Assembly (NCBI RefSeq): GCF_049243625.1
Contig: NZ_CP046975.1
From: Corynebacterium amycolatum
Lineage (GTDB): Bacteria > Actinomycetota > Actinomycetes > Mycobacteriales > Mycobacteriaceae
Reading direction: 5' to 3' (one strand)
Length of the DNA: 32,000 bases
Below, piece after piece: positions 5,623-31,745 of the stretch. Position numbers and translations under genes: made by a program. How positions within the stretch are numbered: the first letter of the stretch is position 1; each line of letters starts with the position of its first letter. Below the pieces are notes generated by a model that saw only the letters and a program-made list of their open reading frames with translations, searched no databases and was not told where the DNA came from.

Positions 5623-7776
5623 GTGTCGGAAATGGGCAAGCAGGTCGCGGAGCCGGTGGGTGAGGACAAGCTGGATTACCACGCGCTCAATGCGCTGCTG
5701 AATCTGTACGGTGAAGACGGCAAGATTCAGTTCGATAAAGACCGCATGGCTGCGCGCCAGTTCTTCTTGCAGCATGTCAATCAGAACACTGTGTTCTTCC
5801 ACAACTTGCGGGAGAAGCTCGATTACCTGGTAGAAAATCACTACTACGAGGCCGAAGTTCTGGAGAAGTACGAATTTGAGGACGTCAAGGCACTGTTCAA
5901 GCAGGCCTATGCCCACAAGTTCCGTTTTCAGACTTTCCTGGGTGCTTACAAATACTACACCTCGTACACACTGAAGACCTTCGACGGCAAGCGTTACTTG
6001 GAGCGCTACGAAGACCGTGTCTGCATGGTTGCTCTCACGCTTGCCGACGGCGACTTGGGGCTCGCGCAGCACCTGGTTGATGAGATCATCACCGGACGCT
6101 TCCAGCCTGCTACTCCTACATTCCTCAACTCCGGTAAGGCCCAGCGCGGCGAACCGGTGAGCTGCTTCCTGCTGCGTATCGAGGACAATATGGAGTCCAT
6201 TGGCCGCGCCATCAACTCCTCGTTGCAGCTGTCCAAGCGCGGCGGTGGTGTGGCACTGCTGCTGAGCAACCTGCGTGAACAGGGTGCTCCGATTAAGCAC
6301 ATCGAGAATCAGTCTTCTGGTGTCATCCCGGTTATGAAGCTGCTGGAGGACTCCTTCTCCTACGCTAACCAGCTGGGTGCTCGCCAGGGTGCTGGCGCTG
6401 TCTACCTGCACGCGCACCACCCGGACATCATGCGCTTCCTGGATACCAAGCGTGAGAATGCGGACGAAAAGATTCGCATCAAGTCGTTGTCGCTCGGCAT
6501 TGTCATTCCGGACATCACGTTCGAGCTGGCCAAGCGTAACGACGACATGTACCTCTTCAGCCCGTACGATGTCGAGCGCGTCTACGGTAAGCCGTTCGCG
6601 GACATTAGTATCACCGAGAACTACGCGGATATGGTCGAGGATCCGCGTATTCGTAAGCAGAAGATCAACGCGCGTCAGTTCTTCCAGACCATCGCTGAGA
6701 TTCAGTTTGAGTCCGGCTACCCGTACATCATGTTCGAGGATACGGTTAACCGCGCGAACCCGATTGAGGGACGTATTAATATGTCGAACCTCTGCTCGGA
6801 GATTCTGCAGGTCAACACCCCGTCGACTTACAATGCAGACCTGTCCTACGAGCACGTTGGTGAGGACATTTCCTGTAACCTTGGCTCGCTGAACATTGCG
6901 ATGACCATGGATTCGCCAGACTTCGGTCGCACCGTCGAGACTGCCATTCGTGGCCTGACTGCGGTCAGTGAGCAGACTTCTATTGATTCGGTGCCATCGA
7001 TTCGCAAGGGAAACGACGGATCTCACGCCATCGGCCTGGGGCAGATGAACCTGCACGGCTACCTTGGCCGCGAGAAGATTATGTACGGCTCGGAAGAGGG
7101 CCTGGACTTCACCAATGCCTACTTCGCAGCAGTGCTCTACGCTGTCCTGCGCGCTTCTAACAAGATTGCTCGTGAGCGCGGTCAGAGGTTCGTCAACTTT
7201 GAGAACTCCGACTACGCCAGCGGCAAGTACTTCGATAACTTCGATCCGGCAGAGTTTCAGCCGAAGACTCAGCACGTAAAGGAGATCTTCGCGAACTCCA
7301 CCGCACACATTCCGGACGCTGAGGACTGGGCGCAGCTGAAGGCCGACGTCATGGAGTACGGCCTGTTCAACCGCAACCTGCAGGCAGTGCCGCCGACCGG
7401 TTCGATTTCGTACATCAACAACTCGACCTCGTCGATTCACCCGATTGCATCTCAGATTGAGATTCGCAAGGAGGGCAAGATTGGTCGCGTTTACTACCCG
7501 GCTCCGCACTTGGACAATGACAATCGCGAGTACTTCCAGGATGCCTACGAAATCGGCTACGAGAAGATTATTGACACTTACGCGGTCGCTACCAAGTATG
7601 TTGACCAGGGACTGTCCCTGACCTTGTTCTTCAAGGACACGGTGAGCACTCGTGATCTCAACCGTGCGCAGATTTACGCATGGCGCAAGGGTATTAAGAC
7701 TCTGTACTACATCCGCCTGCGTCAGGTTGCGCTGGAGGGTACTGAGGTTGAGGGCTGCGTATCCTGCATGCTTTAA
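5623..7776 (+). CDS. nrdE: class Ib ribonucleoside-diphosphate reductase alpha subunit
   Basis: NrdE-typical features are present: N-terminus [24 protein letters not shown], active-site region NLCSEILQ, and C-terminus LYYIRLRQ...CVSCML. AAAGGAG lies 5 nt upstream of the GTG at 5623. Alternative starts are ATG at 5632 and ATG at 5602. Confidence 0.95.
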
Positions 7777-28418: not shown

Positions 28419-28500
<82 letters not shown>

Positions 28501-28507
28501 CACATAA

Positions 28508-28538: not shown

Positions 28539-29267
28539 CTTCGTTCTCCAGCCCGTCAGATTTTCCGCCCTCATTAGGCCGCGTGCCCAAAATCTGGCCC
28601 ATTTCCCGCCCGATTTCACCCAGTCCGGTGTCGAACAGATGAGAGCACGCATCGAGGGTGATGGACGGGCGCGCGCGTGCCCCAGCTGCCTATGCACCTG
28701 CATGACATTGGCACTAGAGGCAATGAGCAGTGAGGCAGAGGTGTGAGGAGGTCATGACAGCCTAGTCTCTTAGGAAACGTGTCATCGTCATCCGCGCACG
28801 TGCTCATGGTGGAGGTCCACCAGGAATGTGAACCCGTCGGTAGAGCAGCGGGTCAGTAAACGGGTCGCTGTGGAGGGTGTACCGCACCAGCTCGGCAGGG
28901 TGGCGGCCTGCAACCCGTGGGCGCAGCTGCTCGACAACCTGCGGCGGCATAGAGATGGTGCGCTCTCGCCAGTCTTAGTAGTCTCGCCTATGACCGTGCG
29001 GTCCGTCTCCGAGCGCGTGACCGTCTTGGAATAGACCCCGGCGGTGACAGTTTCGCGCCACGCGTCCAGTTCCGCATTGACTGTCTCCACCGCAGAGTTC
29101 ACCGTGCGGTCTGCTTCGGCCAGCGTCTCGGCGTAGTCGGAGTCTATCTCTGCGCCAAGGGTGGCACGCTGACGTGCCTGCTTACCCTCCACCGCGGTCA
29201 TGCGCCGCTCACGCTCGACTTTCACCTCGTTGTAGGTACCAGTGCGCTCCGTCACAGCGCCTGGCAC
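28528..29267 (-). pseudogene. tyrosine recombinase (phage-type integrase) pseudogene, 5'-truncated and multiply frameshifted
   Basis: Minus-strand translation, read across three frames, gives several integrase-like pieces:
- TTKTGE / RTISMPPQVVEQLRPRVAGRHPAELV...LLYRRV
- TFPKRLGCHDL, then a 1-nt gap where the Arg codon of HDLRHT should be
- HTSASLLIASSANVMQVHRQLGHA, then another frameshift
- TLDACSHLFDTGL...
These correspond to the box II region. The codon expected to be the catalytic Tyr is TGC (Cys). An in-frame stop follows ...GGPPP. The remaining length is far too short for a complete integrase. Confidence 0.7.
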
Positions 29268-29397: not shown

Positions 29398-29771
29398 TTA
29401 TGTGACGAGCTGCCCAACCCGTTGATATGAAATATCGAGCAGCGTGGCTGTATCGCGGTAGGCCAATCCCCGGTCTACGAGGTGGCGGGAGGCGCGAGCA
29501 GTTGCGGCTGCGGCTGCCGCCTTTTCCACGAGGAGGGTACGGTTACGGGCAATAGCTGTGGCGGCCTCCTCCCCGCGGGGAGTGTCCATCTGAATGACTA
29601 TCTCGGCGGTGTCCGGGTCTGTCTCTATCTCCGGGTACAGCTCTAACGCCCGGCGCAACTGTCTTTTTCCTCGACAAGGTTGCGACCCTGGGTGAATAGT
29701 CCTGAAACCTGGGGCACTGCAACAGCCCACCGGTCTCCGGAGCGTTCCACCTTTGCTGTGTATGTAGGCAT
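29398..29771 (-). pseudogene. HicB-like antitoxin / HTH DNA-binding protein gene interrupted by a frameshift in an A5 run
   Basis: From the ATG at 29771, MPTYTAKVERSGDRWAVAVPQVSGLFTQGRNLVEEK... has a HicB-type N-terminal pattern and stops at 29643-29645. A second frame continues ...ALELYPEIETDPDTAEIVIQMD...ARASRHLVDRGLAYRDTATLLDISYQRVGQLVT, which has a C-terminal HTH. Adding one A to the A5 run (T5 at 29664-29668 on the plus strand) joins the two frames into a 125-aa protein. Confidence 0.6.
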
Positions 29772-29798
29772 GTGCCAAGTTTCGTGGGGCAAGCTGCT

Positions 29799-29820
29799 CG
29801 TGTCTAGAGGAGTAGACACG
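29799..29820. promoter_or_regulatory. perfect 8-bp inverted repeat in the divergent intergenic region (operator candidate)
   Basis: CGTGTCTA-GAGGAG-TAGACACG lies 28-49 nt upstream of the HicB-like ATG. A second small inverted repeat, TCGGCT-N6-AGCCGA, follows. Confidence 0.25.
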
Positions 29821-29862
29821 GGCTAGCTCGGCTTGGGGTAGCCGAAAGGTACAGGTCTTTCA

Positions 29863-29891
29863 TTGAGGCAGGAAGTGAACCATTCTATAAG
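29863..29891 (+). promoter_or_regulatory. candidate sigma-70-type promoter for the secreted-protein cassette
   Basis: TTGAGG (29863-29868), a 17-nt spacer, then TATAAG (29886-29891). It lies about 80 nt upstream of the ATG at 29974. This is a pattern match only. Confidence 0.25.
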
Positions 29892-29973
29892 TGACAGTCG
29901 CCCAGCTAATAAAATACCGCGGGGCAGCTTGTCGCCAACGGTTTGGTAAGCGTACTCACGGAAGGCTCCAACC

Positions 29974-30498
29974 ATGCGCACACGCACAATATCCCTACTC
30001 ACAGCGGTGGCAATCAGCGTCGCCAGCCTAGGAACAGCAGCGCCCGCCCAGGCCCAAGTGGACGAGAGTCTTGGGTCTATCGCGATTCCCTATGTCCTAT
30101 CTGATACCCCACTTGACGAGGGCACCACCGCCGTTCGGGCTGTCAAGGAATATGGCCCCTGCACCCTATGGCTGGACTACATCCACCTACGGAAGTCAGG
30201 TAACTGGGGAACCATTGGCTTCAAGCCACACACAAAGTGCAGCGTCCCAGTCACGAGTATCAAACACAGCTCCGACTTGAGGTACAAATACTACACCGCG
30301 TGGAGGCTTGCCCTAAGCGGGGTGCGCGATTCTGCCTACAACACGAATCGTCTAGACCAGAACAACATTGCATTTACATGTAACGGGAAAGTAGATACCC
30401 GCTTCATCGGTGTCACGTTGGGAACTATCGTCTATCGGGGGAAGACCTACTACGCCCGAAGCTACTCCGAGGTCGCCAATCTCCCATGCAGGGTGTAG
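29974..30498 (+). CDS. secreted protein of unknown function (Sec signal peptide, four Cys in the mature part)
   Basis: The signal peptide has a basic n-region (MRTRT), a hydrophobic core (ISLLTAVAISVASLG) and an AQA|Q signal-peptidase I site. There is no lipobox and no twin-arginine motif. The mature part is about 147 aa, looks beta-rich, and has Cys in PCTLW, TKCSV, FTCNG and LPCRV. An RBS (GGAAGG) precedes the ATG. No family was recognised. Confidence 0.6.
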   Translation: MRTRTISLLTAVAISVASLGTAAPAQAQVDESLGSIAIPYVLSDTPLDEGTTAVRAVKEYGPCTLWLDYIHLRKSGNWGTIGFKPHTKCSVPVTSIKHSSDLRYKYYTAWRLALSGVRDSAYNTNRLDQNNIAFTCNGKVDTRFIGVTLGTIVYRGKTYYARSYSEVANLPCRV

Positions 30499-30502
30499 AA
30501 CC

Positions 30503-30922
30503 ATGACTATGAAAGTTGTTGTCTGCGTCGTTTATCCCCGCTATCCGGATAACACGGAACCTCTCGGCGGGTTCGTCGAGTCCGAGGAGACCGCCCGCAA
30601 GATAGACGACTGGTGGCGCGCGCAACCTGGCGACATGATTGGCACCTGGGAAGATTTCGAGGTCGAGGTCAATAGCCGCGACCAGATTCTCTACGGGGTA
30701 TTTAGTGGTACGCCCGCCCACAAAATTGACGAGCCAGACTATTACGACCCCATCTGTCACGGGGTGTACACAGACCGTAAGGTAGCTGAGCGCGAGGCAA
30801 AACCTAAGACGATGTGGGCGGCCAACAACTGCCCTCCGAAGTTTGTGCTTCCGTTCCGCCTGGGCTGGAAGTTTGACCGGTATTTCCCCGATGGAAAGCC
30901 CTGGCCACCAGACCAGCTGTAG
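30503..30922 (+). CDS. 139-aa cytoplasmic protein of unknown function, tandem paralogue 1
   Basis: The start ATG lies 4 nt after the stop of the secreted-protein gene (MTMKVVVCVVYPRYPDNTEPLGGFVESEE...). There is no signal peptide or TM segment. It is the same length as, and collinear with, the next gene. The tracked ORF from 30410 is an over-extension. Confidence 0.7.
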   Translation: MTMKVVVCVVYPRYPDNTEPLGGFVESEETARKIDDWWRAQPGDMIGTWEDFEVEVNSRDQILYGVFSGTPAHKIDEPDYYDPICHGVYTDRKVAEREAKPKTMWAANNCPPKFVLPFRLGWKFDRYFPDGKPWPPDQL

Positions 30923-30945
30923 GCCTCCCGCAGAACGCAAGAATA

Positions 30946-31365
30946 TTGCCTATGAAAATTGTTGTCTGCGTCGTTTATCCCCGCTACCCGGATAACACTG
31001 AACCTCTCGGCGGCTTTGTCGAATCCGAAGAAACTGCCCTCGCGATTGACAACTGGTGGCGCGCGCAACCCGGCGGAATGATGGGCACCTGGGAAGATTT
31101 CGAAGTCGAGGTCGAAAGCCGCGACCAACTCCTTTACGGAGTGTTCACCGGCACCCCCACTCTTGAAATCACCGATAGCAACTTCTGGGACCCCATCTGT
31201 TACGGGGTGTACACCGACCGGGAAGAAGCCGAGAAAGCGACTAAGCCAAAATCAATGTGGGAAGCGAACAACAGTCCCCAGAAATACGTCCTCCCCTTTC
31301 GCCTGGGCTGGAAATATGACCGGTATTTCCCCGATGGAAAGCCCTGGCCGCCAGACCAGTTGTAG
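30946..31365 (+). CDS. 139-aa cytoplasmic protein of unknown function, tandem paralogue 2
   Basis: MPMKIVVCVVYPRYPDNTEPLGGFVESEE... By my manual gap-free alignment, 108 of 139 residues are identical to paralogue 1. Confidence 0.7.
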   Translation: MPMKIVVCVVYPRYPDNTEPLGGFVESEETALAIDNWWRAQPGGMMGTWEDFEVEVESRDQLLYGVFTGTPTLEITDSNFWDPICYGVYTDREEAEKATKPKSMWEANNSPQKYVLPFRLGWKYDRYFPDGKPWPPDQL

Positions 31366-31547
31366 GCCTGCGACAGTCCCGCCTCTTTTGGCGGGAACAC
31401 AAAACGGGGCAGCCGCACAGCGCGTGTGAGTACCATTCTGGGAAACCTCTGTTCGCTCATTCCACTGCGTAGGGCGATCGAACCTGTCGATACAATGACG
31501 CTGCTCGAATCGTAACTTGAATCGTAAGGTGGAAGCAGGGAGGCAAC

Positions 31548-31745
31548 TTGAGCATCTCGATGCATCTGGATGAGTACATGGCGCGTCGTGGCATAGTTCC
31601 CGACGACACTGTGGTCAACGATGATCCCTGCGCAATCTTCGACGGCAAAGTCGAGCGCGACGGTAGGTCGCAGCAGGACCTTGAAGAGTCAGAGCGGCGC
31701 TTAGAAGAAGCGGAGTCCGCAATCTTGGATGCGCTAGGCGATTAA
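31548..31745 (+). CDS. small acidic hypothetical protein (65 aa; doubtful)
   Basis: This is an ORF call only. It has a TTG start at 31548 (an in-frame ATG follows at 31560). GGAGG lies upstream at 31538-31542. The C-terminus is acidic and helical-looking (DLEESERRLEEAESAILDALGD). No family was recognised. Confidence 0.3.
   Translation: MSISMHLDEYMARRGIVPDDTVVNDDPCAIFDGKVERDGRSQQDLEESERRLEEAESAILDALGD

Follow-up and report, generated by a model that had tools for sequence, protein, structure and literature searches.

A secreted four-cysteine protein with tandem acidic partner proteins in Corynebacterium amycolatum: a candidate toxin-immunity cassette of the polymorphic type

The three-gene cassette

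We analysed a stretch of 32,000 nucleotides from Corynebacterium amycolatum (NCBI RefSeq assembly GCF_049243625.1, contig NZ_CP046975.1), referred to throughout as the window. Close to its end lie three small genes on the plus strand, the open reading frames ORF1, ORF2 and ORF3: ORF1 encodes a protein with a predicted Sec signal peptide and four cysteines, and ORF2 and ORF3 encode two paralogous acidic proteins, here called the partners. The initial annotation, made from the letters of the sequence, had described three tightly spaced genes of the same strand beside a tRNA-Leu and had proposed an effector with its immunity proteins; the coordinates and the gaps of 4 nt and 23 nt were confirmed. 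The features of the cassette and its left border are the following:

28419..28501, plus strand: tRNA-Leu gene (anticodon TAG; ARAGORN; Rfam tRNA, 55.8 bits), left edge of the islet that carries the cassette
29960..29965, plus strand: Shine-Dalgarno-like motif GGAAGG of presumed function, 8 nt upstream of the ORF1 ATG
29974-30498, plus strand: ORF1, ATG start, 174 aa
29974..30054, plus strand: ORF1 residues 1-27, Sec-type signal peptide with predicted cleavage between AQA and Q, its n/h/c architecture read from the sequence
30055..30144, plus strand: ORF1 residues 28-57, acidic linker or pro-region, containing IPYVLSDTPLDE; AlphaFold2 (AF2) predicted local distance difference test (pLDDT) 64-74, with a β-strand at residues 35-42
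30145..30498, plus strand: ORF1 residues 58-174 and stop, basic, all-β core domain with four cysteines (putative toxin domain)
30503-30922, plus strand: ORF2, ATG start, 139 aa, 4 nt past the ORF1 stop
30946-31365, plus strand: ORF3, TTG start, 139 aa, 23 nt past the ORF2 stop
30497..31239, plus strand: direct duplication unit from a repeat search (30497-30796 versus 30940-31239, 79% identical)
31377..31396, plus strand: G+C-rich hairpin (7-bp stem UCCCGCC/GGCGGGA, 6-nt loop), 12 nt past the ORF3 stop

For ORF3, gene callers prefer an alternative start on identical contigs, the ATG at 30952, which yields a protein of 137 aa and a gap of 29 nt. The duplication unit starts 6 nt before the ORF2 start and there is thus no 3′ remnant of ORF1 ahead of ORF3. 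The three genes most likely form a single operon and would then be co-transcribed. The hairpin behind ORF3 is a possible terminator of this operon: the region 31366-31410 folds with -19.1 kcal/mol (z = -2.6) and has no U-tract; a scan for consensus promoters and terminators returned nothing above chance and did not call the hairpin. Over 6 kb, the window is identical to genomes of the C. amycolatum group, for example Corynebacterium sp. ATCC 6931, and all three proteins are labelled 'hypothetical protein' in these genomes.

ORF1 combines a Sec signal with a basic four-cysteine domain

The N-terminus of ORF1 (MRTRTISLLTAVAISVASLGTAAPAQA, followed after the cleavage site by QVDE) has a basic n-region, a hydrophobic core (Kyte-Doolittle maximum over 15 aa of 2.05, at residue 6) and an A-x-A site, and comparable signal-like N-termini are found in most full-length homologues, in agreement with the Sec signal and cleavage site proposed in the initial annotation. 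The mature protein begins with the acidic linker, in which the motif PY[IV]xAxSPxEA… (ORF1 residues 38-50) precedes the core; the alignment shows the same motif in the long multidomain forms of the family. The core has 13.4 kDa, an isoelectric point (pI) of 9.7 and a net charge of +10, close to the values of the whole family (median pI 9.7; median net charge +10.5, range +3 to +22).

The four cysteines that had been noticed in the mature protein, C63, C89, C136 and C172, show no variation in 32 homologues and are 99-100% conserved across 102 diverse representatives. In a protein exported by an actinobacterium, four invariant cysteines point to two disulfide bonds, with C63-C89 and C136-C172 as the probable pairing. 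Other residues that are conserved across the 102 representatives are R73 (100%), G82 (98%), K84 (97%), T87 (96%) and S75 (80%). The conserved arginine, lysine and threonine could provide a phosphate- or anion-binding site. The metal-independent RNases MazF, RelE and colicin E5 use such Arg/Lys/Thr chemistry with no His or Glu, which makes a nucleic acid or nucleotide the leading guess for the target of ORF1; this is only a guess by analogy, and a purely binding function is possible too. The AF2 model of ORF1, built from the family alignment, has a mean pLDDT of 81.6 (91-98 in blocks of the mature core) and is all-β with long hairpins and with no helix of four or more residues.

ORF2 and ORF3 are acidic proteins with no export signal

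Both partners are acidic (ORF2: pI 4.9, net charge -6; ORF3: pI 4.4, net charge -10), as is their family (median pI 4.9; median net charge -8, range -15 to -3). Neither has a hydrophobic segment (Kyte-Doolittle maxima of 0.83 and 0.86), so the earlier statement that they lack an export signal holds and their location is presumably cytoplasmic. ORF2 is the putative cognate immunity protein and ORF3 the product of a putative second, stacked immunity gene. ORF2 matches the profile of the partner family with an E-value of 1.8e-36 and its AF2 model has an α+β fold (pLDDT 88.7, predicted template modelling score 0.81).

The two paralogues have 78% protein identity and 79% DNA identity, with a ratio of nonsynonymous to synonymous divergence (dN/dS) of 0.135 and a dS of 0.96. 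These values indicate an old duplicate pair with both copies under purifying selection. The paralogues had been called diversified, which is right in the sense that they have diverged but not in the sense of positive selection overall: only residues 31-60 reach a dN/dS of 0.53 and the windowed analysis was saturated. Variable positions among close alleles are enriched at partner residues 72-82 and 90-112 and at residues 113-131 of the secreted protein, a signal too weak to define an interface between the two. The partner (e.g. 30503-30922) appears to contain two strand-loop-strand-helix units, …EPLGGFVESEETARKI… and …DPICHGVYTDRKVAERE…, possibly the result of a duplication within the gene.

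The gene pair is conserved across Actinomycetota

Homologues of the secreted protein were recovered as 33 word-indexed proteins and, in an exhaustive profile search, as 246 representative clusters (E ≤ 1e-3). All named sources are Actinomycetota: Corynebacterium, Rhodococcus, Aeromicrobium, Nocardioides, Nostocoides, Janibacter and Rothia, as well as Arsenicicoccus, Angustibacter, Actinopolyspora and Carbonactinospora. The first partner search gave 13 matches, from Corynebacterium only. Diverged relatives of the partner stand directly downstream of distant homologues of ORF1 and have the motifs …EPL…(S/T)E.EA…, DPI..VYTDR..AE and LP.GW in common; an extended partner profile found 60 proteins, with Saccharopolyspora, Actinopolyspora, Salinifilum, Bounagaea, Pseudonocardia, Actinomadura and Angustibacter among the sources.

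For a survey of synteny, both profiles were compared with the six-frame ORFs of every locus: 17 loci found with the secreted protein and five found with the partner. The genome scan, with a narrow pattern, yielded 10 loci, and the metagenome scan with the partner subfamily one. In 16 of the 17 independent loci found with the secreted protein, a partner gene follows immediately downstream on the same strand, so the co-occurrence of the two families that the initial annotation had put forward as a check is borne out. The downstream protein matches the partner profile with E-values from 1e-63 to 5e-5 in 14 of the 17, at distances from an 8-nt overlap to a gap of about 65 nt. In a long form with LGFP repeats (L012) the match is weak (hmmsearch E 0.007; hhalign E 1e-3, co-linear over 110 columns) and the partner of L023 is related to the Angustibacter type (BLASTP E 3e-9 versus the partner of L004). 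In most loci the spacing lies between an 8-nt overlap and a few nucleotides: the two genes are separated by 4 nt in the window, by 2 nt in C. diphtheriae and by 1 nt in Angustibacter, and overlap by 8 nt in Actinopolyspora. They stand farthest apart in L005 (about 65 nt) and L012 (about 110 nt). The pair is kept from Corynebacterium, including C. belfantii, to Actinopolyspora, Angustibacter, Nocardioides, Nostocoides, Rothia, Janibacter and Pseudonocardia, with order, strand and spacing conserved over at least ten actinobacterial genera.

Two of the five loci found with the partner have an intact pair (L028 and L030, the latter with an ORF for the secreted protein that annotation had not called). 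In Corynebacterium canis (L024/25), a DDE transposase and a frameshift disrupt the gene of the secreted protein, in which Cys136 is also replaced by Ser, and the adjoining partner gene is intact. The remaining two, from Bounagaea and Saccharopolyspora gloriosae (L026 and L029), are orphan partners. Among the loci examined, there is no gene of the secreted protein without a small gene downstream. Partners thus outlive the secreted proteins and not the reverse, an asymmetry that is expected of toxin and immunity genes but not of a chaperone or assembly factor.

Within the C. amycolatum group, the partner cluster at 90% identity has 186 member sequences and its variant P0254 occurs on 134 contigs; the cluster of the secreted protein has 13 members on 81 contigs. 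By these counts, partners seem to be more widely distributed, or to vary more, than this allele of the secreted protein. Transposases flank other loci of the pair. In Actinopolyspora halophila (L003, 2711-4620), the pair adjoins two defence genes that resemble cyclic oligonucleotide-based antiphage signalling systems (CBASS), for a SMODS/AGS_C nucleotidyltransferase and a SLATT_4 effector, in the surroundings of rve and DDE transposases and a phage-type integrase; this region looks like a conflict-system island.

The basic domain is a mobile C-terminal unit

In every long protein among those listed or read from the 246 clusters, the domain of ORF1 stands at the extreme C-terminus. Six representatives consist of an N-terminal region and three LGFP repeats (E 1e-43 to 1e-66) followed by the domain; other long forms have a repeat-rich N-terminal region of about 300-800 aa, up to 927 aa, before it. 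The unit that is moved between architectures is the domain with its short conserved linker. A partner-like gene is found downstream in both LGFP-type long forms examined (L012 and L020).

In the metagenome-assembled genome of L016, a module of secreted protein and partner is followed by an orphan fragment and a second partner gene (6375-7144). The fragment, which abuts this gene, comprises the final 36 codons of another allele of the secreted protein (72% identical; E 5.6e-14 at profile positions 155-187). Displaced cassettes of a toxin tip plus an immunity gene are a signature of recombining toxin loci, as in the orphans of contact-dependent inhibition (CDI) and Rhs systems. The first partner gene of L016 (5495-5921) is frameshifted near its 3′ end and may be a pseudogene or an assembly error, and the second partner has a low-complexity C-terminal extension of about 70 aa, like the 209-aa protein P0040.

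ORF3 resembles the partner of a diverged allele

The sole partner gene of L014, from a related Corynebacterium, is 98.5% identical to ORF3 in protein and 91% in DNA sequence, and it accompanies a diverged allele of the secreted protein that is 87% identical to ORF1. Between the two loci, the DNA identity is 80-81% for ORF1 and ORF2, 76-81% when the upstream genes of the islet are included and 89-92% in the flanks that belong to the core genome. With its near identity to the partner of another, diverged allele, ORF3 has the appearance of a stacked immunity gene. Most simply, ORF3 would be the resident immunity allele, ahead of which a diverged module of ORF1 and ORF2 came to be placed; a strain with this arrangement would resist both toxin variants.

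The islet and its neighbouring genes

The cassette is part of an islet of about 3.5 kb that spans from tRNA-Leu to a gene for a type-I fatty-acid synthase just past the end of the window, a gene that was observed downstream of the islet in L006-L011. The other genes of the islet are the following:

28788-29267, minus strand: 159-aa ORF, N-terminal half coiled-coil and phage-like (weak PHROG matches), C-terminal half rich in Cys, Arg and Ser and seemingly out of frame
29398-29819, minus strand: frameshifted HicB-like antitoxin gene, N-part 29643-29819 and C-part 29398-29778 (PHROG 8245, E 9e-6 and 2e-9)
29823-30002, minus strand: 59-aa ORF upstream of the HicB-like gene, where a HicA toxin would be expected, overlapping the ORF1 start
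31548-31745, plus strand: acidic 65-aa ORF after the cassette

The 159-aa ORF has 76% DNA identity to L014 (3919-4177) and is probably a decayed gene. The HicB-like gene has the same truncated call of 86 aa in contigs with identical proteins, and its orthologue in L014 (4471-4848) is one intact ORF of 126 aa. For the 59-aa ORF, with about 70% protein identity in L014 (judged by eye), there was no HicA motif and no family match; it may be spurious or a small toxin gene of an unfamiliar type. The 65-aa ORF is called in contigs with identical proteins as 61 or 65 aa and has 84% DNA identity in L014 and no family match. Ahead of it, at 31504-31527, there is a tandem 12-nt repeat (CTCGAATCGTAA/CTTGAATCGTAA).

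On one metagenome contig (L009, 1-8500), a mobile element with genes for DNA polymerase A, an FtsK/SpoIIIE-like protein, DUF6011 and helix-turn-helix proteins sits inside tRNA-Leu. Homology to the window restarts at 28476, with the last 26 nt of the tRNA, which are probably the attachment repeat of this element. The islet therefore adjoins an integration hotspot and lies outside that element, and tRNA-Leu itself is an active integration hotspot in this species group. The idea that the islet is itself an integrated element bounded by a direct repeat of the tRNA 3′ end was rejected: no such repeat was found and the L009 element lies upstream of the islet. Comparisons of the cassette with phage and plasmid collections (blastn) gave no match and a scan of viral contigs found no relatives of it, which leaves a phage or plasmid origin unsupported.

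No match to known families and folds

The initial annotation could not place any of the three proteins in a family, and the searches of sequence and structure libraries agree with it. Matches of the three proteins in Pfam, NCBIfam, PHROGs and PADLOC were all at noise level (E ≥ 0.01): those to Tachylectin, DUF4170, the S-layer protein PS2 (signal peptide only) and P2 tail protein I were dismissed. Scanning 102 members of the secreted family singly against Pfam produced nothing consistent. Among 57 members of the partner family, scanned singly, PHROGs gave nothing and Pfam only sub-threshold matches to DUF7336 (PF24024) in 20 of the 57, with a best E-value of 7e-4 and with the gathering cut-off of 25 bits not reached. 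Two of these matches that were examined (11.7 and 16.4 bits) cover 14-19 residues of a strand-helix motif, so that a relation of the partner to DUF7336 is a weak lead; the matches come from the first strand-loop-strand-helix unit of the partner. One partner homologue (P0079) has the UniRef label YCII-related; none of the 57 members matches the YCII Pfam family at E ≤ 1 and the label is apparently automatic.

The family profiles found no match among PDB sequences, the best being the MelC caddie protein in its signal-peptide region (E = 2.1). With the ORF1 model, Foldseek searches of the PDB gave a best E-value of 1.7e-3 with template modelling (TM) scores of at most 0.41, and nothing significant in BFVD; the listed matches (cytoplasmic domains of Kir channels, arrestin, GM2 activator) are generic β-sandwiches and not significant. 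The ORF2 model had a best E-value of 2 and a TM score of 0.2 against the PDB.

Comparison with known systems

Several features of the cassette are shared with polymorphic toxin-immunity systems (Zhang, Aravind et al. 2012, PMC3482391): a common C-terminal toxin domain behind different N-terminal regions, a small immunity-type gene directly downstream (as in 16 of 17 loci here), stacked or orphan immunity genes, a cassette of a toxin 3′ fragment and an immunity gene (here L016) and neighbourhoods rich in mobile elements. It differs from them in that neither protein matches any Ntox, Tox or Imm family of Pfam and in that its commonest form is a stand-alone Sec protein of 150-200 aa with no trafficking or repeat region.

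The closest experimentally studied analogues are the ABP systems of Gram-positive bacteria, which consist of the toxin AbpT, the S8 protease AbpP and the immunity protein AbpI (PMC13460014; PMC12582261). ABP toxins are exported by Sec, have extremely cationic toxin domains and are paired with a cytoplasmic immunity protein (PMC13460014). The cassette has the Sec signal, the cationic domain (core net charge of +10) and a presumably cytoplasmic partner in common with ABP systems, which also occur in Actinomycetota including Corynebacterium. However, there is no gene for an S8 peptidase in the islet or its flanks (the window and L006-L011), the only peptidase being an S58 housekeeping gene about 7 kb upstream. 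In place of the BetaH domain of ABP toxins (a β-sheet around an amphipathic cationic helix), ORF1 has about 30 acidic residues, as judged from the model, with no search with a BetaH profile; and the all-β fold with two putative disulfides is not among the listed ABP toxin folds. Without S8 protease gene and BetaH domain, the cassette is not a member of the ABP family.

With barnase-barstar and with RNase Sa and its barstar-like inhibitor, the cassette shares its layout: the gene of a small basic protein secreted via Sec and, behind it on the same strand, that of a small acidic one of the cytoplasm. The functional logic may be identical to that of barnase-barstar. RNase Sa, moreover, carries a disulfide bond. 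Barnase has an α+β fold with catalytic Glu and His, whereas ORF1 is all-β with no conserved Glu/His pair. The initial annotation had found no resemblance to barnase, RNase Sa, RNase T1, lactococcin 972 or SSI, and this judgement stands. ORF1 and its 102 relatives have no Pfam match to barnase, RNase Sa or RNase T1 and there is no RNase among the listed Foldseek matches from the PDB. For the partner as a barstar, there was likewise no Pfam match in 57 members, nor a significant Foldseek match. Lactococcin 972 gave no Pfam match, the partner is soluble and acidic, and the cassette has no ABC or membrane gene; SSI gave neither a sequence nor a fold match. With no sequence or fold match, all of these proteins, barstar included, are excluded. 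Nuclease-Im pairs of the colicin E3/E5 type and RNases of the MazF type also combine a basic toxin with an acidic inhibitor, and colicin E5, RelE and MazF work with Arg, Lys and Thr, the residues conserved in ORF1. There is no similarity in fold or sequence, and the likeness in residue chemistry is a lead only.

Interpretation and alternatives

We interpret ORF1 as a secreted antibacterial toxin of the polymorphic type and ORF2 as its cognate cytoplasmic immunity protein, with a probability of roughly 0.6. This interpretation is supported by the synteny, the preferential retention of partners, the C-terminal position of the domain, the L016 cassette, the complementary charges of the two proteins, the match of ORF3 to the partner in L014, the purifying selection on both paralogues, the setting at an integration hotspot and the precedent of the ABP systems, and thereby strengthens the proposal of effector plus immunity with which the analysis had started. 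The logic of the system is known, but the putative toxin and immunity families are new and have no fold match in the PDB. ORF1 would be exported via Sec and its signal peptide removed between AQA and Q; the basic all-β core would then fold outside the cell with two disulfide bonds. It would act on a cytoplasmic target of competing actinobacteria, probably anionic and phosphate-containing and most plausibly RNA, DNA or a nucleotide. ORF2, made by coupled translation, would bind and block toxin that folds prior to export or that re-enters from sister cells. ORF3 would be an older immunity allele, stacked behind, and would protect against a related toxin allele that circulates in neighbouring Corynebacterium lineages.

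A wider proposal, which we regard as tentative and as rather less probable than its opposite, is that the toxin has a new all-β, disulfide-locked fold with an active site of Arg, Lys and Thr: an antibacterial protein, secreted by Sec and diffusible, that skin and mucosal corynebacteria and many soil actinobacteria would produce and that would enter competitors with no recognisable receptor-binding or translocation module or processing protease and would be neutralised by a new immunity fold, with strains collecting alleles against the variants of their neighbours.

Several observations weigh against a toxin with its immunity protein. In the libraries searched, there is no resemblance in sequence or structure between the three proteins and a known toxin or immunity family, and the sample of 17 plus five loci is modest. 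In L013 (6404-7258), a very divergent secreted protein of 793 aa is followed by an unrelated Trp-rich protein of 284 aa with no Pfam match, possibly from another family of immunity proteins that serves this toxin subtype. The 102 representatives have no His, Asp or Glu that is conserved throughout the family; with only R73, K84, T87 and partly S75 conserved, there is no evident enzymatic active site and a binding role is possible. In the mature protein of 147 aa, no module for receptor binding or translocation is recognisable, and there is no gene for a processing protease in the neighbourhood, so that the entry of a disulfide-bonded protein of 13-16 kDa into a target cell is unexplained. If both disulfides are needed, the reduced precursor in the cytoplasm might be inactive, with less need for self-protection. 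Lastly, ORF2 and ORF3 show no sign of diversifying selection overall.

The lack of an uptake module in the short form would be easier to understand if ORF1 were not a weapon but a secreted hydrolase or modifying enzyme, used in nutrient scavenging or against the host, with ORF2 and ORF3 guarding the producer from enzyme that has not yet been exported. Barnase-barstar and the streptococcal NADase SPN with IFS are examples of an enzyme with a self-protection inhibitor. This explanation, too, is consistent with the anatomy of the cassette (a Sec signal, an acidic cytoplasmic partner, tight coupling and a basic, enzyme-like domain), and C. amycolatum and C. diphtheriae are host-associated; the family is, however, common in free-living soil and halophilic actinobacteria as well. 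Partners that stand alone or next to a decayed toxin gene are sensible only if the toxin can come from outside, the second immunity allele matches the partner of another lineage, and the cassette of fragment and partner in L016 is typical of conflict systems between strains. We consider a secreted enzyme of this kind unlikely.

It is also improbable that ORF1 is a non-toxic, disulfide-stabilised β-domain that binds the wall or the membrane, with ORF2 and ORF3 as regulator, assembly factor or chaperone prior to export. The fusions of the domain to LGFP repeats and to large N-terminal regions that resemble surface proteins would suit such a role, as LGFP repeats are generally regarded as cell-wall-anchoring modules in Corynebacteriales; so would the conserved residues, which are only Arg, Lys, Thr and Cys with no classical catalytic residue among them, and the weak Foldseek matches, which include the lipid-binding GM2-activator and NPC2 (TM 0.25-0.3, not significant). 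But Sec substrates do not normally need dedicated cytoplasmic chaperones, and an envelope domain leaves unexplained the orphan and duplicated partners, the retention of a partner after toxin decay, the orphan 3′ cassette, the opposite charges in every family member and the setting among mobile elements.

Three unrelated genes that are adjacent by chance, the island cargo of the initial annotation, would fit a decayed islet with pseudogenes (the frameshifted HicB-like gene and the degraded 159-aa ORF) but are refuted by order, strand and tight spacing kept in 16 of 17 loci and at least ten genera, and we give this explanation next to no weight.

Significance

If ORF1 and ORF2 are indeed a toxin and its immunity protein, they would add undescribed toxin and immunity families to the few protein weapons known in the competition of Gram-positive bacteria and actinobacteria; neither family has a Pfam model or a fold match in the PDB. 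The comparative evidence provides a basis for naming about 250 clusters of 'hypothetical protein'. With a secreted domain of 13 kDa and a simple partner, the system is experimentally easy and could expose a new enzymatic activity or import route, and a tight inhibitor pair might find use as a tool. Members of the C. amycolatum group are multidrug-resistant commensals of the skin and opportunists. The pair is present in this group and in C. diphtheriae and C. belfantii, all of clinical relevance, and is widespread in soil and halophilic actinomycetes; it could explain the exclusion of strains in skin and nasal communities.

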